Shown piece after piece: positions 2,474 through 55,600 of a stretch of 63,893 bases of DNA. The position numbers and the translations under genes are program-made. Within the stretch, counting starts at the first letter, position 1; the number at the start of each line of letters is the position of its first letter. This DNA is from Gammaproteobacteria bacterium (GTDB lineage Bacteria; Pseudomonadota; Gammaproteobacteria; GCA-001735895): the NCBI GenBank assembly GCA_024229615.1, contig JAAESG010000444.1:1-63893 (forward strand), written 5' to 3'. The notes beneath the pieces are model-generated. The model saw only the letters and a list, made by a program, of their open reading frames with translations, searched no databases and was not told the DNA's origin.

Positions 2474-3450
2474 CGTCGATCCTGTTAGTGGTGAGTTCCA
2501 ATCAGTCGTTCAATGAAACGATGCGATAACGGTGTATACGGGATACTTTTAATTTCTACAACATCAAGAATCCTTAAGTTGGCCCGCCATCGGTGATACT
2601 GAAATAGTGGGTCATTATCAGAACTGAGGTAGCGTGGAGCGATCTGAGTAGAGGTTGCTGTATTGAACATGCGGCACAAAACGACGCCATCAACATCGCC
2701 GGAATGCACACCAAAACCGATGAGACGCCGGGTGGATTGATCGAAGACAACAAGCACCCAGTGGCTCTTCAATAGCCGGGGCGCCGGACCGATCGATTCA
2801 CACCGAAACAGGTCAATGCTCCAGAGGCTATCCTTGGTGTGACCAAAAAAGGTCAACCATGATGGTCCGCCATCACCTGGTATAGGGTGATAGTGTTTGG
2901 CTAGAATCCGCCTGACCAGATCCTTGTCGATATATACCTCGAACGTCCTGGTGATTTCCTGGGCGACTCGACGGCAATCAAAACGCGGGGTACGCTGCTT
3001 TAGTTCTATAATGGCTTTAATGAGTTCTCCTGACGGTCCTTTAGGTCCAGGCTTACCACGACGATTTGATGAAAATAAAAGATGGTATTTGCGTCTTACA
3101 AGCGCTTTATGAAAATTCAGTAGAGTAGACGGCCGGATAATAATCACAGTCCGCAGAATACGGCGTGGGGTAAGAAACAGTGACCAGAGACCGAGCAGGA
3201 AGCGGTCATGTACCAAAAGATTAGGTGAGCGTCGCCGAGATCGATTGATGATGAGGAGTTGTTGTTTTAAAAGCAGGCTGTCGGCGACAACGGCCCTTGC
3301 GCCACCGGGTCCGAGTAGTTTGGCAATTGTAGTCAGCAGATATGCGAGCAATAGCAGCATGTCCCTCATGGCAGGTAATCGTAGACGCAATTGTCGTCAA
3401 AAACAAGATTGTCTAAATGATGGTTAACAAGTAATTATTACGAATTCGCC
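2474..3450 (-). mobile_element. IS remnant carrying a 3'-truncated DDE (rve) transposase gene; it interrupts an integrase gene
   Basis: The right boundary is inferred where integrase homology resumes (about 3451). The left boundary is 12 nt from the sensor gene ATG. No terminal inverted repeat pair is visible, which fits a truncation. Confidence 0.6.
2485..3390 (-). pseudogene. rve-family (integrase catalytic core) transposase, C-terminally truncated
   Basis: 301 aa. The DDE-type core is recognisable (SLWSIDLF ... YLSSDNDPLF ... SHRFIERLIGT). The ORF stops right after the ERLIGT segment, where I recall related transposases continuing for roughly 60 more residues. Confidence 0.65.
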
Positions 3451-4035: not shown

Positions 4036-4971
4036 CTAGTTACCTTCCTTGCGGATGCGATCCAGGCGCTTGGTCGCTAAACGGGCGGCAGTCGTGTTTG
4101 GATAACGTTTGCCCAAATCCTGCAGAATCGATTTCGCCTTCGGAAACTGCTTGAGTTCGTAATAAGTATAACCAAGCTTCAGCAACGCATCGGGTACCTT
4201 GTTGCTGCCTGGATGGTCGTTAACCACTTTGCTGAATTCGACAATGCCCTGGTCGAAGTTACGCGTCGCAAAATGCACCTCGCCGAGCCAGTACTGTACG
4301 TTTCCGGCATAACTACTGTTCGGAAATTTCTTCAAAAAAGCATTGAGCTCAGTCTTGGCGTTCTTGTAACGTCCTTCCTTGATCTTATCAAATGCCGATT
4401 GATAGGCTGCTCTTTCTTCGCTCTGTGTCACCGAGGGTGTTTGCGATGCCGATGCGGTTGTCGAGTTAGTGATTGGTTGAGGCACTGTCGCTTCGACAGA
4501 AGGCACTACTGGCTGAGAGTTACCAGTGACTGCCGGAACACTGGTCTGCGGCGCGGGAGCCCGTGCCGCGGCACCGCTTTCAAGCTCGCGCAGGCGGCGA
4601 TCTATATCGAGATACAATTCGCGCTGGCGTTTCTTAATTTCGCCGATATCGTTGGTCTGTACTTCAACCTCACCGCGCAACAGGCTAATTTCCTCGGATA
4701 ATTGATCTACCTGCTGGATCATTTCCAACATCGCCCGATTATCGATCAGACGTCCGAGGCGCGACATCTCGCCTGTCAGGGTCTTCAACTGGGCCTGAGC
4801 GGTCGAAAGCTTGGCCTCGGAACGCTGCGATAACTCGGTCAGGCGTTCGACTCTCAGGGTAAGTTGTTCGGGAGTTAAGGCGCTTTGCGCAAACGCAGGA
4901 GCAGAGGCAAAACCCGACAGTATGAAAACCGACAGAAGACCTGCACGTACCGAATGAGTCGCCGCTTTCAT
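4036..4971 (-). CDS. cpoB: Tol-Pal system protein CpoB/YbgF (cell division coordinator)
   Basis: 311 aa with a signal peptide, a coiled-coil N-terminal half and a TPR C-terminal half (YWLGEVHFATRNF..., LKLGYTYYELKQFPKAKSIL). It lies immediately after pal. Confidence 0.9.
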   Translation of the reverse strand: MKAATHSVRAGLLSVFILSGFASAPAFAQSALTPEQLTLRVERLTELSQRSEAKLSTAQAQLKTLTGEMSRLGRLIDNRAMLEMIQQVDQLSEEISLLRGEVEVQTNDIGEIKKRQRELYLDIDRRLRELESGAAARAPAPQTSVPAVTGNSQPVVPSVEATVPQPITNSTTASASQTPSVTQSEERAAYQSAFDKIKEGRYKNAKTELNAFLKKFPNSSYAGNVQYWLGEVHFATRNFDQGIVEFSKVVNDHPGSNKVPDALLKLGYTYYELKQFPKAKSILQDLGKRYPNTTAARLATKRLDRIRKEGN

Positions 4972-4972
4972 A

Positions 4973-5575
4973 TTAATTCACCGTATAGATCAGTTCGACG
5001 CGTCGATTCTGGCTCCAGGCTTCTTCAGAATGACCCGACATGACCGGCTGTTCCTCACCGTAACTGACGGTTTCTAACTGATCGACCGAAGCACCCTGAA
5101 ACAGGAGTACGCGTCTGACCGATTGCGCGCGGCGATCACCGAGTGCGATGTTGTATTCCCGACTACCGCGTTCGTCCGCGTGCCCTTCGAGACGCACACT
5201 GACTTCTCCGTTGCCGGCGATAAAATCACCGTGGGTTTCGAGAATCGAAATCGACTCGCTGGTCAGCTTCGCGCTGTCAAACTCGAAGTAAATAGTGCGG
5301 TTGGACAGTGTGCCTTCGGATTGTTCCAGCATTTCGCGCGCATCCATGGGCATACCGTCGGCGATCGCGCTGCCATCGGCCGAATCCGCACCATCCAGGC
5401 CCGTGGCGTCGGCACCGCTGCCATCGCCAACTGCTCCGGTGGTCGCCTGCGACTGGTCATCAATCGGCGCACCATCGTCGGTAGGCATCTCGTCCTGCGT
5501 GGTCGCACAGGAAGAAACAAAGATAGCCAGCAATGCGGCAATCATCCATGGTTTCATGAGGTTAAGTAGTTTCAT
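4973..5575 (-). CDS. pal: Peptidoglycan-associated lipoprotein Pal
   Basis: Lipobox FVSSC and an OmpA-like C-domain (EGHADERGSREYNIALGDRRAQSV, NRRVELIY). The position in the tol-pal cluster fits. Confidence 0.93.
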   Translation of the reverse strand: MKLLNLMKPWMIAALLAIFVSSCATTQDEMPTDDGAPIDDQSQATTGAVGDGSGADATGLDGADSADGSAIADGMPMDAREMLEQSEGTLSNRTIYFEFDSAKLTSESISILETHGDFIAGNGEVSVRLEGHADERGSREYNIALGDRRAQSVRRVLLFQGASVDQLETVSYGEEQPVMSGHSEEAWSQNRRVELIYTVN

Positions 5576-5604
5576 AGTTTTCCTGCTCCAGGTGTGTTCG
5601 ATAT

Positions 5605-6909
5605 TTATTTACTTTCAAAGGGACCCCAAACAGGCTCGCGGATATCGCCTGCCTGGTCGGATAATTTATGCCTGGCACGCCCATCTAGCGAGACTGCAAA
5701 CAAAATCCCGTTATTTGCACGAGTGGAAGCATACAGCATCATCTTGCCATTTGGTGAAAACGATGGTGACTCATCCAGCGAGCTATCGGTAAGGACGGTC
5801 AAATTGCCTGTCTCGATTTCATATTGCGCTATTTTATAGCGCCCCCGGTCTCCGTGCACCATGCCAATGAATTTTCCATCTGGCGAAAGACTGGGCGCGC
5901 TATTGTAACGTCCTTCAAAGGTGATGCGTTTCGCCCTGCCCCCTTGCGCCCCGACGCGATAGATTTGCGGTGAGCCCGAACGATCGGAGGTAAAAAATAT
6001 CGACTTGCCATCGCTGCTCCAAACCGGTTCGGTATCGATGCTGCGATGGGTCGTCAGGCGTTTGAGTCGCTTGGTTGCCGTGTTCAGGCTGTAAATATCA
6101 GGACTGCCATCCTTTGACAAAACCAGAGCCAGAAACTTGCCGTCCGGCGACCAGCTGGGGGCGCTATTCAAACCCCTGAAACCCGCCACCTTGGAGCGCC
6201 TCGCCGTCGCCAGGTGCTGAATGTAAATTTCCGGGCGATCGTGCTCAAAAGAAACATAGGCCAGTGATTTACCATCCGGAGACCAGCTCGGCGACATGAT
6301 AATTTCGTCAGACTCGAGCACATTCTGGGCATTAAAACCGTCGGTGTCCGCAACCTGCAGTACATACTTGGGCAAGGTCTTGCTGGGCGCACGCACATAG
6401 GCAATACGCGTGTTGAAAGCGCCACGAGTACCGGTAATCTGTTGGTAGATGAAATCGCTGATTTCATGTGCCCGCCGGCGCAGGTTACGCTTTTTGGCTG
6501 GCATACTGCGACCCAGCAACTGTCTTTGCTTGAGTACGTCGAGCAACTGGAATTCAATTTCGTAGTTGCCTGCGGTCTTTTCCAGCACGCGTCCCACGAC
6601 CAGATAATCCTGACCGGCACCGCGCCAGCGGGCGTATCTTACCTGGTTACTGTAGTGTGGCCTGGCCGGTAATTTCGCGCGTTCCATGGATTTTAAAACG
6701 CCGCTGCGAATCAGGTCGCTGGCGACTATCCCGGCGATATCAACCGGCAGTTTGCTGGCGAGTTTTGAATTGTCGAAGGGCACTACCGCAATCGGCAAGG
6801 CGCCATCCACGCCCTGGGTAATTTCGATCGTCAAGGCCGCATGGGCTTGTTGAAAGACTCCGCAGAGCATGACGATAAACAAATGTGAGACTAGCTTTTT
6901 TAGTTGCAT
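5605..6909 (-). CDS. tolB: Tol-Pal system beta-propeller protein TolB
   Basis: 434 aa with a signal peptide, a TolB N-domain and repeated propeller motifs (SPSWSPDGKSLAY, APSWSPDGKFLA, EPVWSSDGKSIFFTSDRSG, SPSFSPNGKM). Confidence 0.95.
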   Translation of the reverse strand: MQLKKLVSHLFIVMLCGVFQQAHAALTIEITQGVDGALPIAVVPFDNSKLASKLPVDIAGIVASDLIRSGVLKSMERAKLPARPHYSNQVRYARWRGAGQDYLVVGRVLEKTAGNYEIEFQLLDVLKQRQLLGRSMPAKKRNLRRRAHEISDFIYQQITGTRGAFNTRIAYVRAPSKTLPKYVLQVADTDGFNAQNVLESDEIIMSPSWSPDGKSLAYVSFEHDRPEIYIQHLATARRSKVAGFRGLNSAPSWSPDGKFLALVLSKDGSPDIYSLNTATKRLKRLTTHRSIDTEPVWSSDGKSIFFTSDRSGSPQIYRVGAQGGRAKRITFEGRYNSAPSLSPDGKFIGMVHGDRGRYKIAQYEIETGNLTVLTDSSLDESPSFSPNGKMMLYASTRANNGILFAVSLDGRARHKLSDQAGDIREPVWGPFESK

Positions 6910-6918
6910 ATCCTGGCT

Positions 6919-7914
6919 TTACTGTACGTTTGGATTAAACAAAAAGGTTAAATCACGCTCGAACACGGCTGGATCCCCCGGTTTTGGCAGAGGTTCAGCC
7001 TTGTACACCGCATTTTCGATCGAAGCTCGATAAGTCGCGGTACTGCCTCCACAGGCCCCGAAGGTGACATCGAGAATAATTCCACCCGGTCCTTGCACGA
7101 CTTTAACTTCACAGGTCGGCATTTTCCCACTTCCTGCCGGTTTACGCCAATTACGTTCGACTTTTTGTCGAATCGCTAGAGTATAATCCGCGCGTAACTT
7201 ATTAAGTCGGCGTTGATTCTCCTCGGCCCGAAGTTTGGCCTGCAACTCTTCCTCCTGGCGTTTCTGCTCCTCTTCAGCAAGACGACGCGCTTCGTCCGCC
7301 TTGCGCTTTTCCTCGGCGATGCGGGCTTCCTCGGCTTTGCGTTTTTCCTCTGCGGCTTTCGCAACCTCGGCTTTACGCTTCTCCTCGGCCTTGCGCTTCT
7401 CCTCGGCCTTGCGCTTCTTCTCGGCTTTGCGCTTTTCCTCAGCCTGGCGTTTTTTCTCGGCCCTGGCCTTCTCTGCCTTGCGTTTTTCGTCTGCTTTTGC
7501 TTTATCGGCTGCTTTACGCTCGGCTTCTTTCTTGCGTTTCTGTTCAGCTTCTTTCTTGCGCTTTTGTTCGGCCTTTTTTTTCTTTTTTAGTTCCGCTTTT
7601 TTCTTTTCCTCGGCTTTGCGTTTCTTCTCCGCTTCCTTTTTCTTTTTATCGGCGATTTTTTTGGCCTGCTGATCCTTCTTTTTCTTTTCAGCGTCTCGCT
7701 TGCGTTTTTCTTCGGCCTGCTTTTCACGCTGCAAGGCTTCCAGTTGCTTTTGGTCGACCACTTCGGCCTTGACGGTCTTTTCAAGCTGTCCTGTCTTAAT
7801 CAGTTTCGGTTTTTCGATGAAGCTAAAGTTAATAACCATCAAGCCGATGATCAAGGCGTGGAACACGAGCGAAACCATTAACGCGCGTGGGTGTTTGAGC
7901 AACTCTGCAAACAC
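6919..7914 (-). CDS. tolA: Tol-Pal system protein TolA
   Basis: N-terminal TM anchor, a Lys/Ala/Glu-rich helical domain of about 200 aa (AEEKRKAE-type repeats) and a conserved C-terminal domain. It lies between tolR and tolB. Confidence 0.9.
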   Translation of the reverse strand: MFAELLKHPRALMVSLVFHALIIGLMVINFSFIEKPKLIKTGQLEKTVKAEVVDQKQLEALQREKQAEEKRKRDAEKKKKDQQAKKIADKKKKEAEKKRKAEEKKKAELKKKKKAEQKRKKEAEQKRKKEAERKAADKAKADEKRKAEKARAEKKRQAEEKRKAEKKRKAEEKRKAEEKRKAEVAKAAEEKRKAEEARIAEEKRKADEARRLAEEEQKRQEEELQAKLRAEENQRRLNKLRADYTLAIRQKVERNWRKPAGSGKMPTCEVKVVQGPGGIILDVTFGACGGSTATYRASIENAVYKAEPLPKPGDPAVFERDLTFLFNPNVQ

Positions 7915-8330
7915 TATGGCTTGTCCTCGGGTTCGGTCACCAGCCCGACCGAACCCACGTTAGCCTGTTGCAACAACACCAGCGTCGCGACGACATTCTG
8001 ATAAGGTCCATTAGCGTCCCCGCGCACCATCACCGGGCGTTTCGGCGCTTTGATCAACGCCGACTTAACCTGGTTTACGAGTGCTTCGGCACTGATGTCA
8101 CCATCCGGGTTGACTGCGATATTGAGATACATCAAGCCTTCCTTGTCAATCGTAATGACGATCGGTTCGGGGCTTTCCGCATCGAGTTGATTCGCCGGTG
8201 CGGTCGGTAGATCCACATCAACGCCCTGCTTTAGCAGTGGTGCGGTGACCATGAAGATAATCAACAATACCAACATGACGTCGATATAGGGTACGACATT
8301 GATTTCGGAAACTGAGCGGCGTTTCTTCAC
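7914..8330 (-). CDS. tolR: Tol-Pal system protein TolR (ExbD family)
   Basis: 138 aa with the ExbD/TolR signature INVVPYIDVMLVLLIIFMVTAPL. It follows tolQ. Confidence 0.92.
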   Translation of the reverse strand: MKKRRSVSEINVVPYIDVMLVLLIIFMVTAPLLKQGVDVDLPTAPANQLDAESPEPIVITIDKEGLMYLNIAVNPDGDISAEALVNQVKSALIKAPKRPVMVRGDANGPYQNVVATLVLLQQANVGSVGLVTEPEDKP

Positions 8331-8340
8331 TCGATGAGTC

Positions 8341-9015
8341 CTACCTGGGAGACTGGGCCTGGCGCTGCAGGATACCGGTGAACTCTTCGAGGAAATTTTC
8401 GTAACGCACGATCATCGCGTCGATTTCACTGGTGAACTTGTTGTACGCGACGACCGCCGGTATCGCTGCCAGTAAACCCATCGCAGTCGCGATCAGGGCT
8501 TCCGAAATGCCGGGTGCCACCATCGCCAGTGTCGCCTGTTGCACACCGGCCAACGCACGAAACGATTCCATGATGCCCCAGACCGTACCGAACAGTCCGA
8601 CATAGGGACTCACCGAACCGACCGTTGCCAGAAACGGCAAGTTGTTTTCCAGCATTTCTATCTCGCGCGACATCGACACCTTCATCGCGCGGTGGGCCGA
8701 GCGCACCACTTCGCTGTTATCGAGCTCGGCCTTGCGTGCACGTGCAAATTCACGAAACCCGTTTTCGAATATTGCCTCGAGTCCGAAACGCCGCTCCTGG
8801 CGCACACTCAATTGCGCAAACAAATCGCTCAGATTGATACCGGACCAGAATCGACCTTCGAATGTCTTCGCTTCCGATTGCGACTGGCGAATATAGCCAC
8901 GCTTGACATACATCAGCGACCAGGAAAACACCGAGGCCAGGAGTAGCAGCAGCATGACCAGTTGTACCGGAATGCTCGCGTTGAAAATCAGAGTAAACAG
9001 TGAATCGTCAGTCAT
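8341..9015 (-). CDS. tolQ: Tol-Pal system protein TolQ (MotA/TolQ/ExbB channel)
   Basis: 224 aa, three TM segments, conserved C-terminal GLLAAIPAVVAYN segment. Confidence 0.92.
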   Translation of the reverse strand: MTDDSLFTLIFNASIPVQLVMLLLLLASVFSWSLMYVKRGYIRQSQSEAKTFEGRFWSGINLSDLFAQLSVRQERRFGLEAIFENGFREFARARKAELDNSEVVRSAHRAMKVSMSREIEMLENNLPFLATVGSVSPYVGLFGTVWGIMESFRALAGVQQATLAMVAPGISEALIATAMGLLAAIPAVVAYNKFTSEIDAMIVRYENFLEEFTGILQRQAQSPR

Positions 9016-9055
9016 GGTTTTATTACAGGTTGATTTAACGGGTTATATTCGGAGT

Positions 9056-10075
9056 TTAAAGATTGATCTCGCCCTGGGTCGAATGCTTGATTCCGAAATG
9101 CAAATACGCGCGCGATGTTACCACACGTCCTCTCGGGGTACGCATCATAAAACCCTGCTGGATCAGGTAAGGCTCGATGACATCCTCGATCGTACCACGC
9201 TCCTCGCCGATCGCAGCTGCGAGGCTTTCGACACCGACCGGTCCACCATCAAATTTCTCGATCAAAGCCAGAATCAGACGTCGATCCATATGATCCAGGC
9301 CCGATTGATCGACTTTGAGCATATCCAGGGCAGCCCGCGCGATCTCGGCGCTGATAACGCCATCCGCCTTGACCTCGGCATAATCGCGCGCACGTCGCAG
9401 CAGGCGGTTGGCGATGCGCGGGGTACCGCGCGAACGGCTGGCGATTTCCCGCGCGCCTTCTGCTTCCAGTCTGATCTCCAGCAATCCCGCCGAACGCATG
9501 ATAATACGCCCCAGATCCTCGGCACTGTAAAACTCGAGGCGCTGCACGATGCCGAATCGATCGCGGAGCGGTGAGGTTAACAATCCCGCTCGCGTGGTCG
9601 CACCGACCAGAGTAAATGGTGGCAAATCGAGTTTGATCGAGCGCGCCGCCGGCCCCTCGCCAATCATGATATCAAGCTGAAAATCTTCCAGCGCCGGATA
9701 CAGGATTTCTTCGACAACCGGACTCAGGCGATGTATTTCATCGATAAATAAAACATCATGTGCCTCCAGGTTGGTCAGGATTGCAGCCAGATCACCAGCC
9801 TTCTCCAGTACAGGCCCTGAGGTCTGGCGCAGATTGACTTGCATTTCGTTGGCAATAATATGCGACAGCGTTGTTTTACCAAGCCCCGGGGGGCCAAAAA
9901 TTAGTACATGATCGAGCGCCTCCTGTCTTTTAATCGCGGCCTGGACAAAGATGTCCATTTGTTCGCAGACCTCGTCCTGTCCGACATAATCGACAAGCTT
10001 TTTCGGTCGCAATGCCCGATCCTGAGATAATTCCTCGACGATCGCTTCGGCACTAATCAGGCGTTCTTCGCTCAT
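9056..10075 (-). CDS. ruvB: Holliday junction branch migration ATPase RuvB
   Basis: 339 aa, Walker [10 protein letters not shown], Walker B LFIDEIHR; follows ruvA with a 4-nt overlap. Confidence 0.96.
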
Positions 10076-10683
10076 GCTTTAACCGTTGACTGCAATGCTT
10101 TCTTGATCAACTGGGAAGCGCTATTCACCGCCTCGACCTGCTGCTGTGCTCGACTAATCATCTTTTCTGCATCCGCCGCTTTATAACCCAGGGCTTGCAG
10201 GGCTTCAATCGCTTCGCTGGCAATCGGTTGTCCACCCACAGAAACCTGCTGTGCCGGAATCTCGCCGACCAGGGCTTCGATCTTGTCACGCATTTCGATG
10301 ATCAGACGCTCGGCCGTTTTTGTGCCGACGCCGGGCAGCCGGGTTAGCATAGCTATGTCGTTATTGGCGATACAAAGTGCGAACTGCTGATTGTCGATAC
10401 CGGAAAGAATCGTCAACGCCATTTTCGGGCCGACACCATTGATGCGGATGAGCTGGCGGAACAACTTGCGTTCCTGTTCCGTGGTGAACCCGATCAGGCT
10501 GTGGGAATCTTCCTTAACCAGTAAATGTGTCCAGATCGAAATCTGCTCACCGACCTCGGGAAGTTGGTAATAAGTCGTCATCGACACGTCTGCCTCGTAA
10601 CCCACCCCATTACAATCAATAAGAATTTGCGGCGCGCGCTTGGCTGCGAGCATGCCTATCAAACGGCTGATCATCTTCGACAA
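10072..10683 (-). CDS. ruvA: Holliday junction DNA-binding protein RuvA
   Basis: 203 aa with the HhH segments ([26 protein letters not shown]). The ruvC-ruvA-ruvB order fits. Confidence 0.95.
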
Positions 10684-11997: not shown

Positions 11998-12657
11998 TTA
12001 CCAGCCAGGAGGGAGTTTTTTCTCAATAGTGATATGTTTACCTTCTATCGAGATGTAACCGCCGGTTTTTAGCTCCTTGAGGATGCGATGAACCATTTCG
12101 CGAGTAGCGCCGACCCGACTGGCAATATCCTGCTGGGTTAATTTCTCGGTCACCAGTTTTTCGCCGACCTCATCGGCATGCTTGTAGAGCACGCGCACCA
12201 CGCGGTTGTATACATCTTCGAGCGCAAGACTGCTGACCTCTTCGGTCAAATCCTGAATACGATGAATGAGTAAGTCGATGATTTGCATGCTGACCGTTGG
12301 CTTGGCGAGCAGTGTATCCATAAATACCTGGCGCGAAATAATGCCAAAGGTAGAGTCTTCGGTCGTGATAATGCTCGCCTGGCGCGGAATGCCACCCAGT
12401 GGCGCGAGCTCACCGAAAGCCTCGCGCTCACCCAGCGTGTTGATAATAATTTCCTTGCCCTTGTCGTTGTGCAGGAATACATCGACCTTGCCTTGCAAGA
12501 TCACGTAAAAAGAATCGGTTTCATCACCCTGACTGACAATTACGGTATTCTTGGGGAATTGGCGAATGACCGTCTGCGAAGCGATACTTTCGAAGTCGTC
12601 CTCGGTCATCCCTTGAAACAACGTAATTTCTTCTAGTGTCTCGTTTAAGGTTGCCAT
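11998..12657 (-). CDS. Crp/Fnr family transcriptional regulator
   Basis: 219 aa with a cNMP-binding fold (FGELAPLGGIPRQASIIT) and a C-terminal HTH (QQDIASRVGATREMVHRILKEL). Confidence 0.85.
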   Translation of the reverse strand: MATLNETLEEITLFQGMTEDDFESIASQTVIRQFPKNTVIVSQGDETDSFYVILQGKVDVFLHNDKGKEIIINTLGEREAFGELAPLGGIPRQASIITTEDSTFGIISRQVFMDTLLAKPTVSMQIIDLLIHRIQDLTEEVSSLALEDVYNRVVRVLYKHADEVGEKLVTEKLTQQDIASRVGATREMVHRILKELKTGGYISIEGKHITIEKKLPPGW

Positions 12658-15275: not shown

Positions 15276-15449
15276 ATTGTAGTTATCGGACAGGCAGGCA
15301 ATTTATTGAGATAAAACTGGTCGTGCCGAGACCTGGGGAGCGTTTTTGCGGTTAAATCAACACTCCCGTTTTCCCCCAAAATCGAGCAGAGCTACAACAG
15401 TGACCGAGTTGTCTCCGCGAAAAATACGGCAGGATGAAAACGACAGGGA

Positions 15450-16337
15450 TTAAGTCTTGTCGAGGCCGGCTTCGTCGGCTTCCGCGCGGTCGATCTCGAC
15501 TTCCATTTCCTCATCAGTCAAAGGTTCATGCTCGGCAACGATGGAATTTCCGGATTCCAGATCCTCTTCCTCCTCTTCGTCCTCATCCTCATCATACTTT
15601 CGATCCTTGAAGATAATTTTCGATGCGATCAGCCCCGCTTCGAACAGAACCCACATCGGTAGTGCCAACAACACTTGTGAAATGACATCCGGCGGGGTAA
15701 GCAGCATGCCGATGATAAAAGCGCCGACGATGACATACGGACGCTTTTCGCCGAGCTTTTTCGGCGTTGTGAGACCGATCGCAATCAGGATTATGGTCGC
15801 AATCGGCACTTCGAAGGCCAGTCCGAATCCAAAAAACAGGGCGAGCACAAAATCCAGGTAACGGCCAATATCGGTCGAAATGTTAACGATTTCCGGACCG
15901 ACGCTGGTGAAGAAGCCGAACACCAGTGGAAACACAATGTAGTAGGCGAAAGAAACACCCGCGTAAAACAGTAAAATGCTGGATACCAGCAACGGCCCTG
16001 CGATACGCTTTTCGTTAGCATAAAGACCTGGCGCAACAAATGACCAGCATTGATGCAGGATGACTGGCATCGCCAGGAATACCGAAAGCATTAACACCAG
16101 TTTGAAAGGCGTCAAAAATGGCGAGGCGACATCGATCGCAATCATGTTGGCGCCTTCGGGCAAATGTCGCGTCAACGGCGCAGCCAGATAGACATAAATA
16201 TCGTTGGCCCAGTAAAACATGCCCAGAAAAAGCACCAGTATTGCAAGCACCATACGCACCACGCGATCTCGCAGCTCCACCAGGTGCGACATCAGGCTTC
16301 CGCTTGCGTTCTCTTCCGGAGTATTTTCTTCACTCAT
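15450..16337 (-). CDS. tatC: Twin-arginine translocase subunit TatC, with an acidic C-terminal extension
   Basis: 295 aa with six TM segments and a typical TatC N-terminus (MSHLVELRDRVVRMVLAI). The tail is about 50 aa and rich in D/E. Confidence 0.94.
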   Translation of the reverse strand: MSEENTPEENASGSLMSHLVELRDRVVRMVLAILVLFLGMFYWANDIYVYLAAPLTRHLPEGANMIAIDVASPFLTPFKLVLMLSVFLAMPVILHQCWSFVAPGLYANEKRIAGPLLVSSILLFYAGVSFAYYIVFPLVFGFFTSVGPEIVNISTDIGRYLDFVLALFFGFGLAFEVPIATIILIAIGLTTPKKLGEKRPYVIVGAFIIGMLLTPPDVISQVLLALPMWVLFEAGLIASKIIFKDRKYDEDEDEEEEEDLESGNSIVAEHEPLTDEEMEVEIDRAEADEAGLDKT

Positions 16338-20741: not shown

Positions 20742-21175
20742 TAGTCGAGGATAAATGTGACCGGACCGTCATTTATCAGATGAACCTTCATGTCGGCAGC
20801 AAACACTCCGCTCTCTACCCGATGGTATCTAGCTCTCGCATAATCGAGCATGGTATCGAAGATCTGCTGACCTTGTTGCGGGCTTGCAGCCGACGTAAAA
20901 CTGGGTCGTCTTCCCTTTTTGGTGTTGGCCGCAAGGGTGAACTGGGGCACTAACAACAATCCGCCACTGATATCAATCAGCGACAGGTTCATCTTGCCCT
21001 CAAGGTCAGAGAAAACGCGATAATTCAACAGGCGGTCGATGCTTTGGTGGGCTTTCGCTTCGTCATCCTCGGACTGCACTCCGATCAAAACCAGGATGCC
21101 CTGACTAATCTCGGCGACGACTTCGTCGGCAACCTCTACACGGGCTTCGCTGACACGTTGTAACAGCGTTATCAA
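20741..21175 (-). CDS. dtd: D-aminoacyl-tRNA deacylase
   Basis: I place the start at TTG 21175, which gives (M)ITLLQRV... (145 aa, the typical Dtd length) and overlaps the pip stop as TTGA. It contains the VPQFTL motif. The longer 153-aa track ORF is unlikely. Confidence 0.88.
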   Translation of the reverse strand: MITLLQRVSEARVEVADEVVAEISQGILVLIGVQSEDDEAKAHQSIDRLLNYRVFSDLEGKMNLSLIDISGGLLLVPQFTLAANTKKGRRPSFTSAASPQQGQQIFDTMLDYARARYHRVESGVFAADMKVHLINDGPVTFILD

Positions 21176-22116
21176 GTAACGATTTCCAGCATCGCATTGC
21201 AACTTTCAACCAGGGCCTTCGAAATTCCGTGCTCGGTTACCGCGTGACCGGCGTCGCCGATAATTTTGAGCTTGGCGTTTTCCCATTCATTTTTAAGTAA
21301 CAAGGCCTGGTCTATCGGACAAACCATATCGTAGCGTCCATGTACGATAAATCCCGGTATATGAGCGATTTTAGGCATATTTTCGATCAACTGATCAGGC
21401 TCCAAAAAACACTTATTACAAAAATAGTGGCATTCGATACGTGCAATACTGAGTGCTATATGCGGGTCGCTAAAATGATCGACGACGTTTTTATCGGGTA
21501 GCAGGGTAACCGAGGATCCCTCCCAGATGGACCAGGCCTTGGCAGCCCCCATACGCACAATTTCATTATTGCTGGTCAGCCTTTGGTAGTAGGCTTTTAT
21601 GATATCGTCACGTTCATCAATCGGAATTGGATCTATAAAGTGTTGCCAGGCTTCGGGGAAAATACGTGCCGCTTCACCATTGAAGAACCAGTTAACATCT
21701 TCGTCACGCCCTAAGAAAATACCCCTAAGAATCAATCCCAGCACCTGTTGGGGATGAGTTTGAGCATAGGCCAGCGCCAGGGTCGAGCCCCAGGATCCAC
21801 CAAATACAACCCACCGGTCAATCTCCAAAAACTCCCGAATCTTCTCGAGGTCGTCAACCAGGTCCCAGGTTGTGTTTTCCTCGAGACTGGCATGCGGCCG
21901 CGATTTTCCACTACCGCGCTGGTCGAACAGAATGATGCGATAAGACTCGGGATCAAAAAAACGACGATGTCCTGGTTCACAGGAACCACCGGGGCCGCCA
22001 TGCAAAAACACGACAGGTAAACCATCAGGATTGCCACACTCTTCCAGATACAGGGTATGAAGATCGGAAATCGGAAAACGCCAGGTCTTACCTGGTTGTA
22101 TGGCGGGGAATAACAT
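21172..22116 (-). CDS. pip: Proline iminopeptidase (alpha/beta hydrolase)
   Basis: 314 aa with HGGPGG and the nucleophile elbow GGSWGSTLAL. Confidence 0.92.
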   Translation of the reverse strand: MLFPAIQPGKTWRFPISDLHTLYLEECGNPDGLPVVFLHGGPGGSCEPGHRRFFDPESYRIILFDQRGSGKSRPHASLEENTTWDLVDDLEKIREFLEIDRWVVFGGSWGSTLALAYAQTHPQQVLGLILRGIFLGRDEDVNWFFNGEAARIFPEAWQHFIDPIPIDERDDIIKAYYQRLTSNNEIVRMGAAKAWSIWEGSSVTLLPDKNVVDHFSDPHIALSIARIECHYFCNKCFLEPDQLIENMPKIAHIPGFIVHGRYDMVCPIDQALLLKNEWENAKLKIIGDAGHAVTEHGISKALVESCNAMLEIVT

Positions 22117-22146
22117 ACGTGTCGCGGATCTCCGTTATAAAATTAG

Positions 22147-22164
22147 TGTAGGACCTGTCCTACA
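22147..22164. promoter_or_regulatory. GacA/UvrY-type upstream activating palindrome, TGTAGG-N6-CCTACA
   Basis: TGTAGGACCTGTCCTACA has the 6+6+6 geometry of the TGTAAG-N6-CTTACA consensus and matches most of its positions. It lies about 70 bp upstream of a TATACT -10-like hexamer (22234-22239) that precedes the GGA-rich sRNA candidate. Confidence 0.6.
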
Positions 22165-22245
22165 TGATCTATCTGTTTTGGCTGACAACCTCGTTGCCTG
22201 CCTTCGATATCAGCCCTGCCTGTGGGGTGCCAATATACTATCACG

Positions 22246-22385
22246 ACAAAGGGAGTGGTCGACAGGCAAGGATGACGCCACCAGTGCACGGATGCACATA
22301 CAGGGAAGTACCTTATTGTCAAAGTCAGTTTTTCTCTCCTCGAGATAGTCCTAGGCCTGGGCAGGAAGCAACCAGGCTTTTTTTT
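22246..22385 (+). ncRNA. Candidate Csr/Rsm-family (RsmY/RsmZ/CsrB-like) CsrA-sequestering sRNA
   Basis: The region has no plausible CDS. It holds five GGA motifs in about 140 nt: AAGGGAG at 22249, AAGGAUG at 22268, ACGGAUG at 22288 (in a UGCA-CGGA-UGCA hairpin loop), CAGGGAA at 22301 and CAGGAAG at 22362 (in the terminator loop). It ends in a GC stem followed by a T8 run. The 5' end is only estimated from the -10 hexamer. Confidence 0.6.
22355..22385 (+). terminator. Rho-independent terminator of the sRNA candidate
   Basis: Stem GCCTGG / CCAGGC with loop GCAGGAAGCAA, followed by TTTTTTTT (22378-22385). It can only function on the plus strand. Confidence 0.7.
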
Positions 22386-22409
22386 ACTTGGAATCGATAC
22401 AGGCACGAT

Positions 22410-23216
22410 TTAAAATCGACTGAAATCAAATAGTTCGCGGTCGAGCAAATGCGACGGTGACACCTTGCATAGCGAACTCAAAATACTCTCGACCCTGCCA
22501 GGATAAGTGTCATCCCACTGACGCAACATTGCCTTCACTGCCTGGCGCTGTAACTTCGGCTGTGAGCCGCAAAGGTTGCACGGAATAATGGGAAATTCCC
22601 GTCGCACGGCATACTGTTTAATCAGAGTCTCACGCACATAGGCCAGGGGGCGAATCACCGTGTTACGCGAGTCATCGCTTTTCAGTTTCGCCGGCATCGC
22701 TTTCAGATGGCTGTTGTAGAACATGTTCAGGAACAGGGTTTCGACGATGTCGTCGGCATGGTGGCCCAGCGCAATCTTGCTGGCACCGAGCTCAACCGCG
22801 GTATTGTATAAAACCCCGCGGCGCAATCTGGAACACAACGAGCACGTGGTTTTACCCTCGGGTACCAGCCGTTTGACCACGCTGTAGGTATCCTCTTCAA
22901 CGATGTGGTATTCAATCCCAAGAGAATCCAGGTAATCAGGTAGTACCCGTTGTGGAAAACCGGGCTGTTTCTGATCCAGATTCACGGCAATCAATTCAAA
23001 CTCGATCGGAGCAGATTTCCGTAACCTGAGCAGCATCTCGAGCATGCAGTAGCTATCAGCACCACCCGACAGGCAGACCATGACTCGATCTCCTTCTTCG
23101 ATCATATTGAAATCGCTAATCGCGCGGCCAACGCTACTGCGAATTTTGCGTTCAAGTTTTTCAGGGCGCAAAGTTTCCAGCGCGCTCGTGTCAACTTCCC
23201 TGGGTTCGCTGCTCAT
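22410..23216 (-). CDS. ttcA: tRNA 2-thiocytidine(32) synthetase TtcA
   Basis: I place the start at the internal ATG (MSSEPREV...), just after the trkH stop. Motifs: PP-loop CLSGGADS and the Cys motifs [10 protein letters not shown] and PCNLCGSQ. Confidence 0.9.
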
Positions 23217-23220
23217 CGAT

Positions 23221-24672
23221 TTATTTTTTCCAGAATGCCGGCGTAAACAAGACCAGTAGAGTGAATATCTCGAGACGCCCCAGCAGCATAGCAACACAAA
23301 GTATCCATTTGGCGGGATCGTTGATCGACGCAAAGTTACGCCCGACGTCACCGAGACCGGGGCCGAGATTATTGAGGCAAGCGGCCACTGCCGAGAACGC
23401 AGTTTCCTGATTGAGACCGGTCGCCATCAGCAGCAAAATCATCAGGGCTGAAATCGCAAAATAGGCCGCGAAGAAGCCCCAAACCGCTTCAATGACATTT
23501 TCTGGCATGGCCTTCTTGCCGATCTTCACTGCAATTTGTGCGTTCGGATGAACCAGTCGCCTCAGCTCCCGAACTCCCTGCTTGACCAGTAACAGAATTC
23601 GAATCACCTTGATACCGCCACCGGTCGACCCCGAACAACCGCCGATAAAACTGACATAGAGCAGCAACACAGGTAAGAAACCGGGCCAACTGTAATATTC
23701 AGCGGTGGTAAAACCCGCAGTCGTACCGATCGAAACCACCTGGAACAAACCCTCAATAATCGATTCGGTGGTCGTATCGAAGGTATGCATCAATTGCAGG
23801 TAACCGATGGTAATCACGCTGACAATGACCAGCACCAGAATGTAGGTACGAAACTCGGCATCGCGCTGGTAAGGTTTCAGCGAGCGGTGTCGGAAAGCGG
23901 TGAAGTGAATCGCAAAATTGACCCCGGAAAGCAGCATAAAAACGATCGCGATGAATTGAATTGCGGTACTGTTGAAATAACCGATGCTGGCGTCATGCGT
24001 GGAAAATCCACCGATTGCGACAGTCGAAAACGAATGCGACATCGCGTCAAAAAATGACATCCCGGCAAGCCAGTAGGCGAAGCAGCAAGCCATGGTAAGA
24101 CCCAGATAAATATACCACAAGGCCTTTGCAGTCTCGGTGATACGCGGCGTTAGCTTGGTATCTTTTACCGGGCCCGGGGTTTCGGCGCGAAACAATTGCA
24201 TGCCGCCAACGCCGAGCATCGGCAATACCGCCACGGCGAGCACGATAATCCCCATGCCGCCGAGCCATTGCAGTTCCTGGCGGTATAATAATAATGAGTG
24301 TGGTAAATCATCGATGCCGACTATGACGGTTGCCCCGGTTGTGGTGATCCCGGATATGGATTCGAAGACAGCATCGGTGATCGATATATCGTACACCCCG
24401 GACAGGTAAATCGGCAATCCACCGGCGACGCCCAGCACCGTCCAGAACAAAACCACGACCAGGAAACCGTCGCGCAGGCGCAATTCCTTTTTCTGATTGT
24501 AGACCGGCAGGAAGAGTAAAAACCCTGCAATTATGGTCAATACGAAGGCTTCCACGAATGGCAGCACCGCACCATCACCATAGATCAGGCCCGTCACGAT
24601 TGGCGGTAACAAGGTAGTACTGAAAACCATCATCAGTAAACCCAGGATGCGCAGAATAACCAGAAGTTGCAT
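23221..24672 (-). CDS. trkH: Trk system potassium uptake protein TrkH
   Basis: 483 aa polytopic membrane protein with repeated selectivity-filter-like GxTxTG segments ([21 protein letters not shown]). Confidence 0.92.
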
Positions 24673-52670: not shown

Positions 52671-55600
52671 GTGTCTAAATTTGAGCTAATTTTACTGGGG
52701 CATTTTGATTGTTTGCTACCATCGGGGCAGCGAATTTCGTTATCCATGCGCAAGGCCGAAGTACTTTTGGCTTATCTGGCGCTTGTACCCGGAATCCGCC
52801 ATCCTCGTGAGCGTTTAATCAACCTGTTATGGAGCGACCGCGGCGAGGAGCAGGCTCGAAACTCTTTACGCCAATGCCTGAGCGCGATTAAAAAGTCACT
52901 GGGTGACGGTGCAGACCTGATTTTGCTGGTCGATCGAAGCGCGGTGACACTGAAGCCAGAGTTGATCGACGTCGATGTGCACGAGTTTGAACACCTCGCC
53001 GCATCGGATGATTTCGAATCCCTGACCACCGCCATCGAACTTTACCAGGGTGAATTTCTCGAGGGTATTACGTTACGCGACGTAAGCGGGCAGGAATGGC
53101 TGGATAGCCAACGCGGCCGATTCAAACACCAGTTCATCGAAGTATTGCTGAACCTGACGCAAACGCAGCTACTCAGCCACGATTTCAATACCGCGATAAA
53201 ATCTTCCGAACGCCTCGTCAAACAGGATCCATTGGGAGAGTCGGGCTGGCGCCTGTTGATGCGCAGTTACTTCGAAAATGGAGATCGCAGCCATGCCTTA
53301 CAGGCTTACAAACGTTGCCAGAATGTATTGCGTGACGAGCTCGATGTCGACCCGGAAGCCGAAACCGCGCAGTTGCGCGATCGGATCGCAAATGGCGGAA
53401 CCAGTCCCACACCGAAAGCAGTACCAAAAAAAGCTTCGGTCGATACCCCGCCGACAACCGATCACAGTATCGCTGTGTTACCGTTTGACAATCTCTCCGG
53501 TGACCCCGAGCAGGAATATTTCAGTGACGGCATCACCGACAGCATTATCCTGAACCTGTCACGATTTCGAGGACTGCAGGTTAAGTCCCGCAATTCCAGT
53601 TTTGCATTCAAGCAACAAATCAAGAACCTCGGTGAAATTTACAGAGAACTCAATGTCGACTACATCGTCGAGGGCAGTATCCGCAAATCGCCGGAGCGTA
53701 TCCGCATCATGGTGCAATTACTCGAAGCCGGGAGTGGCAACCAAATCTGGGGTAAACGTTACGATGCTGAAATCGAAAATCTGTTTGACCTCGAAGAAGA
53801 ACTGAGCCGTAGTATCGCCGCGACAGTGACAGGTCAGATCAAATCTGACTTGCAACGCATCGCGATTTCCAAGGGCGCTGCACATCAACAGGCCTATGAC
53901 TTGCTGCTACAGGGAATTTATCACAGTAATATAAGTACCCCACAAGATTGTGCAGTCGCAATCGAAAAGCTGAATCAGTGCCTGGCTTTGGATGCGAACA
54001 ACGCGCTGGCCCATGCAACACTTTACTCATGCCACGAGATGAACTGGATCGATCGCTGGGCATCGAATTTCGAAGCTTCCCGAAAACTGTGCGAAGTACA
54101 TGCAACAAAAGCACTCGAGCTGAATCCCGAGCTGGGCCAGGTTCAGGTGGTTTATGCCGAGCACCTGATTTTTAACCGTGATTACGACGAGGCCGAGGCC
54201 CACCTGAAAAAAGCGCTCGGAATTAATCCGAACGATTCCGAGGCCATCGCCGCCCTGGCGCTAAATCTGAGCTGTCAGGGGAAATTCAAAGCGGCCCTGG
54301 AACAGGCCAGGCTCGCGATACGACTCGACCCCTATCACACCTGGGCCAGGTGGATTTTGACTGAAGCCCAGTTTTTTTGCAGACAATACGAGGAGGCGCT
54401 GGACACTATTGCCGAGACTGGCAACCCACCCGGCTTTCTCCAGATATACAAGATTGCTGCCAATATCAGCCTTGACCGCATGGACGCGGCACGCGAGATA
54501 CTGAAGAACTTTCTCCACAACTGCCGTAATAGTATGTTGTCAATGCCGCGAGATATCGACGAATGGCTGGCTTACTCTCGCGACAATGCACCTTTCGCCA
54601 ACCCCGGGTTTAATCAGGAAATTATTGATTACCTGGTGCAGGCCGGGCTCGAGGATCATTTGACGGCCTCGCAACAGCAGGATGATTCAAGCCTACAACC
54701 GAGTATCCTGGTATTGCCATTCAGCAATCTGTCCGGCGATCCGGAACAGGAATATTTCAGCGACGGCATCAGCGAAAGTATTATCCTGAATTTGAGCTCG
54801 TTCAGCGGCCTCGAGGTTAAATCGCGCCATACCAGCTTTGCCTTCAAGGACAACTCCAAAAGTATTGCCGATATTGCTGCTGAGCTCGACGTGCAATTCT
54901 TCGTCGAAGGCAGCGTGCGCAAGCGCGACGAGCAAGTACGCATCACCGTGCAACTCGGGGATACCGCTAGCGGTAATCAGATATGGGGCAAGCGTTTTGA
55001 TGCAGCCCTGGACGAACTGTTTTCGCTCGAAGAAGAACTGGTGCAAACCATTGCCGGTACCATCAGTGGCCGCATCGATCATGAAATCAAAACCACATCG
55101 ATACAGAAACCGGCCAAAAATCTAAAAAGCTACGATTACCTGATGCGAGGCTGGTATCACGGCGAACGCTTTACCCCGGAAGATACCTTCGCCGCCGTTG
55201 ATCAATTCAATCGATGCCTCGAGATCGACCCTAATAATGTCGAAGCACATACGATGTTATCGGCGGTTACCAATGTCCTGCTTTACGAAAACTGGACCGA
55301 TGATCGGCAGCAAGCGAAATCCATCGCTAAAAAACACATCTTCAAAGCGCTGGAACTCGAGCCAAATCATGCGCTCGTACATGCTTTCATGGCAGAGCAC
55401 TACCTGTTTGCGAAAGATTTCGAGAAATCCATGTTTCACGCCAATAAAGCGATCGAACTCAATCCGGCTCTGCCCGACGGATATTCATACAAAGCCTACG
55501 TCCTGAGTGTCACCGGAAACACCGGGGAAGCCTTCCCGGTTGCCGAAATCAGCATGCAAATAGATCCCTATCATTACTATATGGGCTGGAACGCCGGCGA

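Follow-up and report, generated by a model that had tools for sequence, protein, structure and literature searches.

A predicted Csr/Rsm-like small RNA family with a conserved pyrimidine-rich tract beside pip in uncultured marine Gammaproteobacteria

The pip–ttcA locus and its conserved plus-strand elements

The 63,893-nucleotide (nt) contig JAAESG010000444.1 of a gammaproteobacterium (assembly GCA_024229615.1), which in its full length is referred to here as the window, carries the genes for prolyl aminopeptidase (pip) and tRNA 2-thiocytidine synthetase (ttcA) on its minus strand, separated by a gap of 293 bp (22117-22409) in which a conserved, non-coding and unannotated small RNA (sRNA) gene is predicted on the plus strand, divergent from pip and convergent with ttcA (Table 1). 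An earlier note on this DNA, made from the letters alone, had proposed here an sRNA of the CsrA/RsmA-titrating type preceded by a GacA/UvrY box. The gap has the size reported in that note, the elements listed for it are all present to within 1-2 bases, and its open reading frames (ORFs) are indeed implausible: those spanning it, of 82, 89 and 87 amino acids (aa), were rejected since no frame is open throughout the homologues, and no conserved reading frame was found across the homologues in the RNA region.

The case for this RNA being a real gene rests on conservation as the strongest evidence rather than on motif counts. A genome scan with the pip protein yielded 80 loci, of which the close relatives (pip 71-89% identical, all metagenome-assembled genomes (MAGs) of uncultured Gammaproteobacteria) can be aligned upstream of pip only at the box, two promoter islands, the -10 hexamer and the predicted RNA. 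A metagenome scan with an RNA-internal pattern (GGTCGACAG-N50-80-CTCTCCTCGAG) matched 82 stretches, 18 of them true homologues according to the covariance model R1 (68-142 bits) and one a marginal match (L122, 16 bits, E=0.04), the remainder being GC-rich, coding-type sequences with no R1 score that were taken as chance. A TATACT-like -10 hexamer is found in 18/18 true matches and, wherever the flank is present, the exact GTAGG-N6-CCTAC box is found in all of them but L113, with a box start 109 nt (108 nt in L108) upstream of GGTCGACAG; the GC-rich chance matches listed have no box. As neither box nor -10 was part of the search pattern, the result tests independently whether they are linked to the RNA. 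The distinct homologous sequences total 24, with 23 in the alignment, and two more distant ones in addition, L010 (37.6 bits) and L002 (36.2 bits), were found by R1 without having been used in building it. On the window RNA R1 scores 142 bits; each contig yields a single copy, and no other was detected in the window. All homologues are single-copy, lie next to pip and belong to uncultured marine Gammaproteobacteria. In L003 and L007 the RNA is equally conserved but is followed by sequence unlike the ttcA 3' end of the window and of L001.

The palindrome at the upstream edge of this conserved block, previously read as a GacA/UvrY/LetA-type activating site, has the 6-N6-6 geometry of such sites, and its half-sites agree at 10/12 positions with the GacA/UvrY consensus TGTAAGN6CTTACA (PMC3171408, PMC8523701, PMC1488887), while a GacA box with the TGTAGG half-site variant has been reported from Marinomonas (PMC8523701). 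Among 22 in-register homologues conservation is seen in the outer 6+6 bases and variation in the inner ones, with GTAGGAC and CCTACA near-invariant and central bases that are often unable to pair; a sequence-invariant stem around a variable centre suggests a protein-binding DNA site rather than an RNA hairpin. The box start lies 95 nt from the conserved CACGAC in 21/23 sequences and 94 and 96 nt from it in the remaining two, a fixed register kept despite a spacer that is only ~60% conserved. Hybrid boxes (TGTAAGCCTTTTCCTACA in L068, TGTAAGCCTTTTCCTACG in L057 and, with a CTTACA right half-site, TGTAGGACTGCTCTTACA in L113) appear to connect the TGTAGG-type with the canonical TGTAAG-type half-sites, and the sequences suggest that TGTAGG-N6-CCTACA is a GacA/UvrY box in a lineage-specific form. 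Further boxes of this kind, which the earlier note had thought worth seeking in the genome, do not occur within the 64 kb window, where exact GTAGG-N6-CCTAC is found at this single site. A terminator scan flagged the palindrome as a minus-strand terminator; this was rejected, as homologues lack the T-run and the stem keeps its sequence unchanged instead of covarying.

The box stands 30 nt from the pip ATG in the window and 26-30 nt from it across the window's clade, whereas in other lineages the distance is 73-76 nt (L057, L068), 112 nt (L062), 135-138 nt (L016, L010) or, in L013, 622 nt with another gene between. In these six loci a -10-like hexamer and an RNA start nonetheless follow ~62-88 nt beyond the box. 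Since the distance to pip varies and the distance to the RNA -10 is discrete, the box would belong to the RNA promoter and would not primarily be a pip element.

The -10-like hexamer reported about 70 bp past the palindrome was found and is conserved, reading TATACT, TATATT or TATTCT in nearly all homologues. The lack of a recognisable -35 suggests a promoter that depends on an activator, and a sigma-70 scan requiring both hexamers did not call the site. The sequence CTGACA was excluded as its -35 because it lies 46 nt from TATACT, a second promoter combining CTGACA with GATATC was rejected for lack of a usable -10, and a sigma-54 promoter, considered on account of TGGCAG-N5-TAGCA in L001, was dismissed for want of conservation of its GG and GC dinucleotides, since TGCCA and ATCA stand in the window. 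Two conserved islands keep a fixed register between box and -10, flanked by spacer that is ~58-63% conserved, and fit no -35, -10, sigma-54 or IHF consensus. The RNA would start 5-8 nt past the -10 and end at the T8 run.

At the 3' end, the GC stem and T8 run described as a terminator working on the plus strand only are borne out by the alignment: the stem has double compensatory changes in 4/5 tested pairs and is paired in 98.3% of cells, its covariation lies above all shuffled and slid controls, and on the minus strand no U-tract accompanies the hairpin. The terminator loop holds AGGAAG, the GGA of which (22364-22366) is sporadic in the family. Conserved homologues, the lack of a conserved frame, the -10 and the covarying terminator together strongly support the earlier proposal of an unannotated plus-strand sRNA gene, with a predicted transcript of its own.

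Table 1. Predicted features of the pip–ttcA gap and its flanking genes (window coordinates; GGA counts refer to the 23 aligned sequences).
Feature	Position	Strand	Remarks
pip (prolyl aminopeptidase)	21172-22116	-	NCBIfam TIGR01249, 416.6 bits; divergent from RNA
pip Shine-Dalgarno sequence GGAGAU	22133-22128	-	
18-bp inverted repeat TGTAGGACCTGTCCTACA	22147-22164		TGTAGG-N6-CCTACA; predicted variant GacA/UvrY-type upstream activating site
Promoter island GCTGACAAC	22181-22189	+	conserved, fixed register
Promoter island CGATATCAG	22205-22213	+	conserved, fixed register
-10 hexamer TATACT	22234-22239	+	69 nt after palindrome
Predicted small RNA, ~140 nt	22244-22385	+	23-sequence alignment, covariance model R1
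5' hairpin CGAC-AAAGGGAGUG-GUCG	22244-22261	+	loop GGA 22252-22254, in 23/23; only GGA site present in the whole family
AAGGAUG site (site 2)	22268-22274	+	GGA 22270-22272, in 18/23; unpaired probability 0.48
Hairpin 2, GUGC-ACGGAU-GCAC, ANGGAN hexaloop	22284-22297	+	GGA 22290-22292, in 17/23
CAGGGAAG site (site 4)	22301-22308	+	GGA 22304-22306, in about 12/23; unpaired probability 0.57
Pyrimidine-rich tract GUUUUUCUCUCCUCGAGAUA	22328-22347	+	anti-Shine-Dalgarno-like, invariant
Rho-independent terminator	22354-22385	+	stem 22355-22360/22372-22377; T8 22378-22385
ttcA (tRNA 2-thiocytidine synthetase)	22410-23351	-	NCBIfam NF007972, 443.9 bits; convergent with RNA

GGA motifs, predicted fold and the CU-rich tract

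The RNA contains five GGA motifs, at 22252, 22270, 22290, 22304 and 22364, and what distinguishes them is their context. The earlier description of five GGAs in A(N)GGA-like surroundings over ~140 nt holds: 5/5 stand in an AGGA/ARGGA (A[CGU]GGA) context against a shuffle mean of 1.2 (P=0.003), and no 144-nt tile of the window's plus strand has a higher count. AGGA/ARGGA is the motif that defines CsrA-regulating RNAs (PMC1488887). The family consensus has four CAGGGA sites within its first 65 nt.

In the predicted fold, hairpin 2 appears to be the most CsrA-site-like element of the RNA, with a loop GGA of unpaired probability 1.0 and a stem that is retained in the RNAfold centroid, which keeps only this helix and the terminator hairpin. 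That GGAs lie in loops, as had been predicted, applies robustly to the motifs at 22290 and in the terminator loop at 22364 (unpaired 0.96-1.0), whereas the other three are ambiguous (0.18-0.57). Across the family hairpin 2 is paired in 77% of cells, with one compensatory change (GCGC/GCGC in L003), and the stem of the 5' hairpin is near-invariant, 97.8% paired, and offers no covariation. RNAalifold on the 23 sequences recovers only the terminator and two tiny helices; the hand-drawn 5' hairpin and hairpin 2 fit the alignment, with almost no covariation.

The most conserved segment of the RNA is the pyrimidine-rich (CU) tract, which the earlier note missed. It is the most conserved segment also among the pip-ascertained genomes alone, where UCUCCUCG is kept in 9/10 of those with readable intergenic sequence, a count free of search-pattern bias because these genomes were chosen by pip and not by the RNA pattern. 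RNAalifold indicates a possible small UCUC/GAGA hairpin presenting UCCUC, and the unpaired probability of the tract is 0.39. No extended complementary target was found in the window or the family loci: the best duplex, at -21 kcal/mol, falls in a region of decayed repeats and not at a gene start, and L001, L105, L111 and L113 share a match of 10 nt within pip that is not conserved in the window. Resemblances to Rfam families are all insignificant and limited to sRNAs with a CU tract and a terminator, namely RF02278 for the window (15.9 bits, E=1.2, resting on these two elements) and RF02837 for the RNAs of two other lineages, L057 and L068. The tract, invariant and placed before the terminator, points to a possible additional activity, for which base-pairing with Shine-Dalgarno (SD) or GGA sequences, a turnover site and a chaperone site are candidates.

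C/U-rich elements were also noticed in RNAs at the pip locus of other lineages. The 3' parts of the RNAs of L013, L057 and L068 have a common motif CUCAAUCACCU(C/A) right before their last hairpins, and the AAUCACCUCC of L068 equals the anti-Shine-Dalgarno 3' end of 16S rRNA; this AAUCACCUCC/CUCAAUCACCU(C/A) element may be a counterpart of the window CU tract.

Proposed function and competing explanations

The explanation that we consider probable is a Gac-type activation through the box of an RNA that would bind one or two CsrA dimers and so relieve CsrA repression. Transcription would depend on an activator at a promoter that has a TATACT -10 but lacks a -35, the 18-bp repeat being centred ~91 nt upstream of the predicted start, and a BarA/GacS-UvrY/GacA-type two-component system would most likely switch the RNA on, a form of control proposed because the box appears to be a lineage variant of the GacA/UvrY box. 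The transcript would present up to five A(N)GGA sites, among them those in the hexaloop of hairpin 2, the 5' hairpin and the terminator loop, and would bind one or two CsrA/RsmA dimers through the 5' hairpin, hairpin 2 and neighbouring A(N)GGA sites, whereupon CsrA-mediated translational repression would be relieved. With only one or two dimers bound, it would be a small, low-valency Csr/Rsm-type RNA. Binding of GacA and of CsrA, the transcription start and the role of the CU tract are what we infer from sequence.

The reading of the box as a GacA-type site gains from the syntenic pip locus elsewhere, where the same or a hybrid box precedes GGA-rich RNAs. In L013, L016, L057, L062 (Thiohalocapsa) and L068 such a box upstream of pip is followed by RNAs of 160-300 nt with terminators, containing 9 (shuffle P=0.016), 16 (P<0.0005), 7 (P=0.015), 11 (P=0.001) and 6 (P=0.06) GGA motifs, respectively. 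Like the window RNA, these are divergent from pip and have the same or a hybrid box, a terminator and a C/U-rich tract before the terminator; they differ in being denser (6-16 motifs, one GGA per 18-27 nt), in having no detectable homology to the window family (R1 E>0.1) and in a box centred nearer -70 in L013, L057, L062 and L068, as opposed to about -91 in the window family. Rfam gave no Csr/Rsm match on these GGA-rich syntenic RNAs either. Two further loci drew attention in the same survey. In the Chromatiales MAG L071, three perfect hairpins with GGA loops stand upstream of pip (GUCGGAAAGGAUUCGAC, CCGGAUGGAUCCGG and CCUCGACGGAUCGAGG; reverse-complement ~4040-4160), preceded by a half-box only, ..AAATTCCTACA, and the Pseudomonadota MAG157 (L020) has a run of AUGGAU-loop hairpins (CCGACAUGGAUGUCGG, GCGGCAUGGAUGCCGC and GGAAUCCAUGGAUGGAUUCC; reverse-complement 2351-2530) ~650 nt past the pip 3' end, a Csr-like RNA that Rfam does not recognise.

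Several observations weigh against this explanation. The bare GGA count, 5 per 144 nt, does not stand out from a dinucleotide-shuffle mean of 3.4 (P=0.2), and coding stretches of the window reach 7-11 GGA per 144 nt; raw GGA counts are not diagnostic, because the densest GGA stretch lies within an ORF. (The top density, 11 per 144 nt, occurs at 15430-15620 on the minus strand, in the 3' part of the ORF 15450-16337.) The density of one GGA per 29 nt is below the one motif per ~20-22 nt of published CsrB examples (PMC1488887). The 5' hairpin is not in the minimum-free-energy structure of the window RNA, the RNA does not exceed shuffled sequences in stability (z=+0.46), and mean predicted GGA accessibility across the family is 0.53 against a background of 0.47. 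The number of AGGA/ARGGA motifs per family member ranges from 0 to 6, with none in L008 and one each in L004, L107, L110 and L162, so that multivalency is not maintained by selection. The CU tract has no role in a sponge model. The Rfam models CsrB (RF00018), CsrC (RF00084), RsmZ (RF00166), RsmY (RF00195) and RsmX (RF02144) do not match, and tblastn with CsrA and RsmA found no csrA in the window or in 162 loci (1 Mb). The earlier view that the element has the defining anatomy of a CsrA-titrating sRNA was therefore overstated, given the low GGA density, only two motifs that lie confidently in loops, members with 0-1 motifs and the lack of an Rfam match, and it leaves the best-conserved element of the RNA, the CU tract, unaccounted for.

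Two further readings assign the CU tract a function. In the first, which is possible but rather doubtful, a Gac-controlled RNA has shifted from a multivalent CsrA sponge to a different or dual mechanism in which its UCUC-UCCUC-GAGA element pairs with the GGA/SD sequences, recognised also by CsrA, of mRNAs or of other Csr RNAs; if true, a few residual GGA hairpins would still bind CsrA, and the Gac output of this clade would be partly RNA-RNA and not purely protein titration. In the second, which we judge unlikely, the RNA is primarily a trans-acting base-pairing sRNA whose tract, CUCUCCUCGAG, serves as the seed that occludes ribosome-binding sites, the GGAs being relics of a Csr ancestor or secondary features; its transcription may still be GacA-dependent. 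A base-pairing RNA is suggested by the conservation of the tract, by the GGA-poor members (0-1 AGGA/ARGGA), which retain promoter, 5' hairpin, GGUCGACAGGCA, CU tract and terminator, by the kind of sRNAs to which the insignificant Rfam resemblances point (RF02278, RF02837), and by C/U-rich tracts at the same position in distant syntenic RNAs, such as AAUCACCUCC in L068. Against it stand the lack of an extended complementary target in the window and family loci, the partial pairing of the tract in the UCUC/GAGA hairpin and the persistence of four CAGGGA sites in the family consensus; moreover, the GacA/UvrY regulons that have been studied are known to consist almost entirely of CsrA-binding RNAs.

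Two explanations dispense with CsrA altogether. It is very improbable that the RNA works in cis, through antisense or transcription interference directed against minus-strand read-through from ttcA into pip: RNA and ttcA converge, the terminator hairpin lacks a minus-strand U-tract, so that ttcA transcription could read through into pip, and inspection revealed no convincing pip promoter between the box and ttcA, but the RNA is equally conserved in L003 and L007, which differ downstream of it from the ttcA 3' end, another gene lies between RNA and pip in L013, and the GGA contexts and the box would be left unexplained. Least credible is that there is no independent RNA and that the palindrome is a pip operator, for instance a lux-box-type site for a LuxR-family regulator, the rest being promoter or leader DNA of pip; although the box is close to pip in this clade and, in plant-associated bacteria such as Xanthomonas and its relatives, LuxR solos control the neighbouring pip by way of a palindrome that resembles a lux box, elsewhere the box lies 73-138 nt or, across a whole gene, 622 nt from pip with its register to the RNA -10 kept, the conserved block runs 240 nt past the box to a plus-strand-only covarying terminator, the spacing is TGTA-N10-TACA, as in GacA boxes, where the lux box of Vibrio fischeri is TGTA-N6-TACA, and the palindrome lacks that core, just as no luxR-family gene flanks pip, whose neighbours are dtd, hisB, hisH, ttcA, trkH and trkA.

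A low-valency Csr/Rsm-like sRNA family for which a second function is possible is thus the most likely interpretation of the sequence data. Such a family would lie beyond Rfam coverage in uncultured marine-sediment Gammaproteobacteria that are environmentally abundant, and the variant GacA box TGTAGG-N6-CCTACA would be usable for finding the Gac regulon in these genomes. It would further link a Csr-type RNA locus to pip over several gammaproteobacterial lineages, of which no description was found in a limited literature search. The decay of GGA sites beside an invariant CU tract offers a testable case for the evolution of Csr/Rsm RNAs and for a base-pairing Gac output.

Some features elsewhere in the window were also noted. 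With regard to the flanking genes, the match of NF007972 on ttcA begins at residue 55 and the ttcA ORF overlaps trkH; the real ttcA start is probably downstream of GTG 23351. A tol-pal-like cluster, with an OmpA-family/Pal-like protein and a MotA/TolQ/ExbB-family protein, and ruvA, all assigned by Pfam, lie within 4973-10683 on the minus strand, where ruvB, TolA, TolB and TolR are putatively assigned from ORF position and a Lys/Ala/Glu-rich repeat. Together with a Crp-family regulator (11998-12657, minus strand, by Pfam), these genes are ordinary housekeeping context. A very large ORF of 1879 aa spans 52671-58310 on the plus strand. In the region 600-2300 degenerate direct repeats, at least seven in number and 61-76% identical, recur every 147-156 nt (multiples of 3). 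All ORFs of this region are broken, none exceeding 100 aa, and a transposase/integrase-like ORF (2485-3390, minus strand) adjoins it; the region has the look of a decayed gene whose protein product had ~50-aa repeats.

Relation to known regulatory RNAs

Kulkarni et al. 2006 (PMC1488887) set out criteria for CsrA-regulating sRNAs that have been applied also in PMC3171408 and PMC8523701. Four of the five hold here wholly or in part: the predicted RNA is intergenic, ends in a rho-independent terminator and is preceded by an 18-bp UvrY/GacA-type site. On the other two, a high concentration of AGGA/ARGGA motifs and repeated GGAs in loops or free regions, the observations are divided, with context enrichment in the window copy (P=0.003) beside a low density and 0-6 motifs in the family, and with two of five GGAs robustly in loops. 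Conserved genome context is accepted as a supporting criterion, and members of low motif density have been accepted where upstream site and genome context are conserved (PMC1488887). Membership of the CsrB, RsmY or RsmZ families in the sense of Rfam did not follow, as their models gave no match at the gathering threshold nor at E<=10 on 22050-22480; this says little on function, since Rfam also misses the GGA-rich syntenic RNAs. Concerning the regulators, no response regulator was found among the ten window ORFs of ~190-230 aa scanned with Pfam.

The closest parallel is with RsmX, RsmY and RsmZ of Pseudomonas (RF02144, RF00195 and RF00166), with which the window RNA shares a size of ~110-140 nt, an 18-bp 6-N6-6 GacA box, a poor -35, A(N)GGA motifs partly in short loops, a GGA in the first ~10 nt and a rho-independent terminator. 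It differs from them in the lack of a model match, in half-sites that read TGTAGG/CCTACA instead of TGTAAG/CTTACA, in a box centred at about -91, in the invariant CU-rich tract, which the Pseudomonas RNAs do not have, and in its fewer motifs, 5 in the window RNA and 0-6 in the family, where the Pseudomonas RNAs carry roughly 5-8. CsrB and CsrC of Enterobacteria, Vibrio, Shewanella and Marinomonas are likewise intergenic, with a UvrY/GacA box, AGGA/ARGGA motifs, a terminator and conserved context, but they are 350-420 nt long with 16-22 motifs, compared with ~140 nt and 5 motifs here, and are syntenic with syd or yihA/yihI instead of pip/ttcA.

Outside the Csr/Rsm group, the Betaproteobacteria toxic small RNA RF02278 has a CU-rich motif, UCUCUCC, followed by a terminator; at 15.9 bits against a gathering threshold of 50, however, the window RNA is not a member. 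The dual-function sRNA McaS of E. coli, which base-pairs with mRNAs and binds CsrA through GGA motifs, would offer a precedent for joining a few GGA sites and a distinct base-pairing region in one short RNA. It is not known to be controlled by a GacA/UvrY box and is unrelated in sequence to the window RNA, for which dual function is a hypothesis. Taken across these systems, the window RNA most likely works like a small Rsm-type RNA and yet appears to form a separate family outside the Csr/Rsm models of Rfam.

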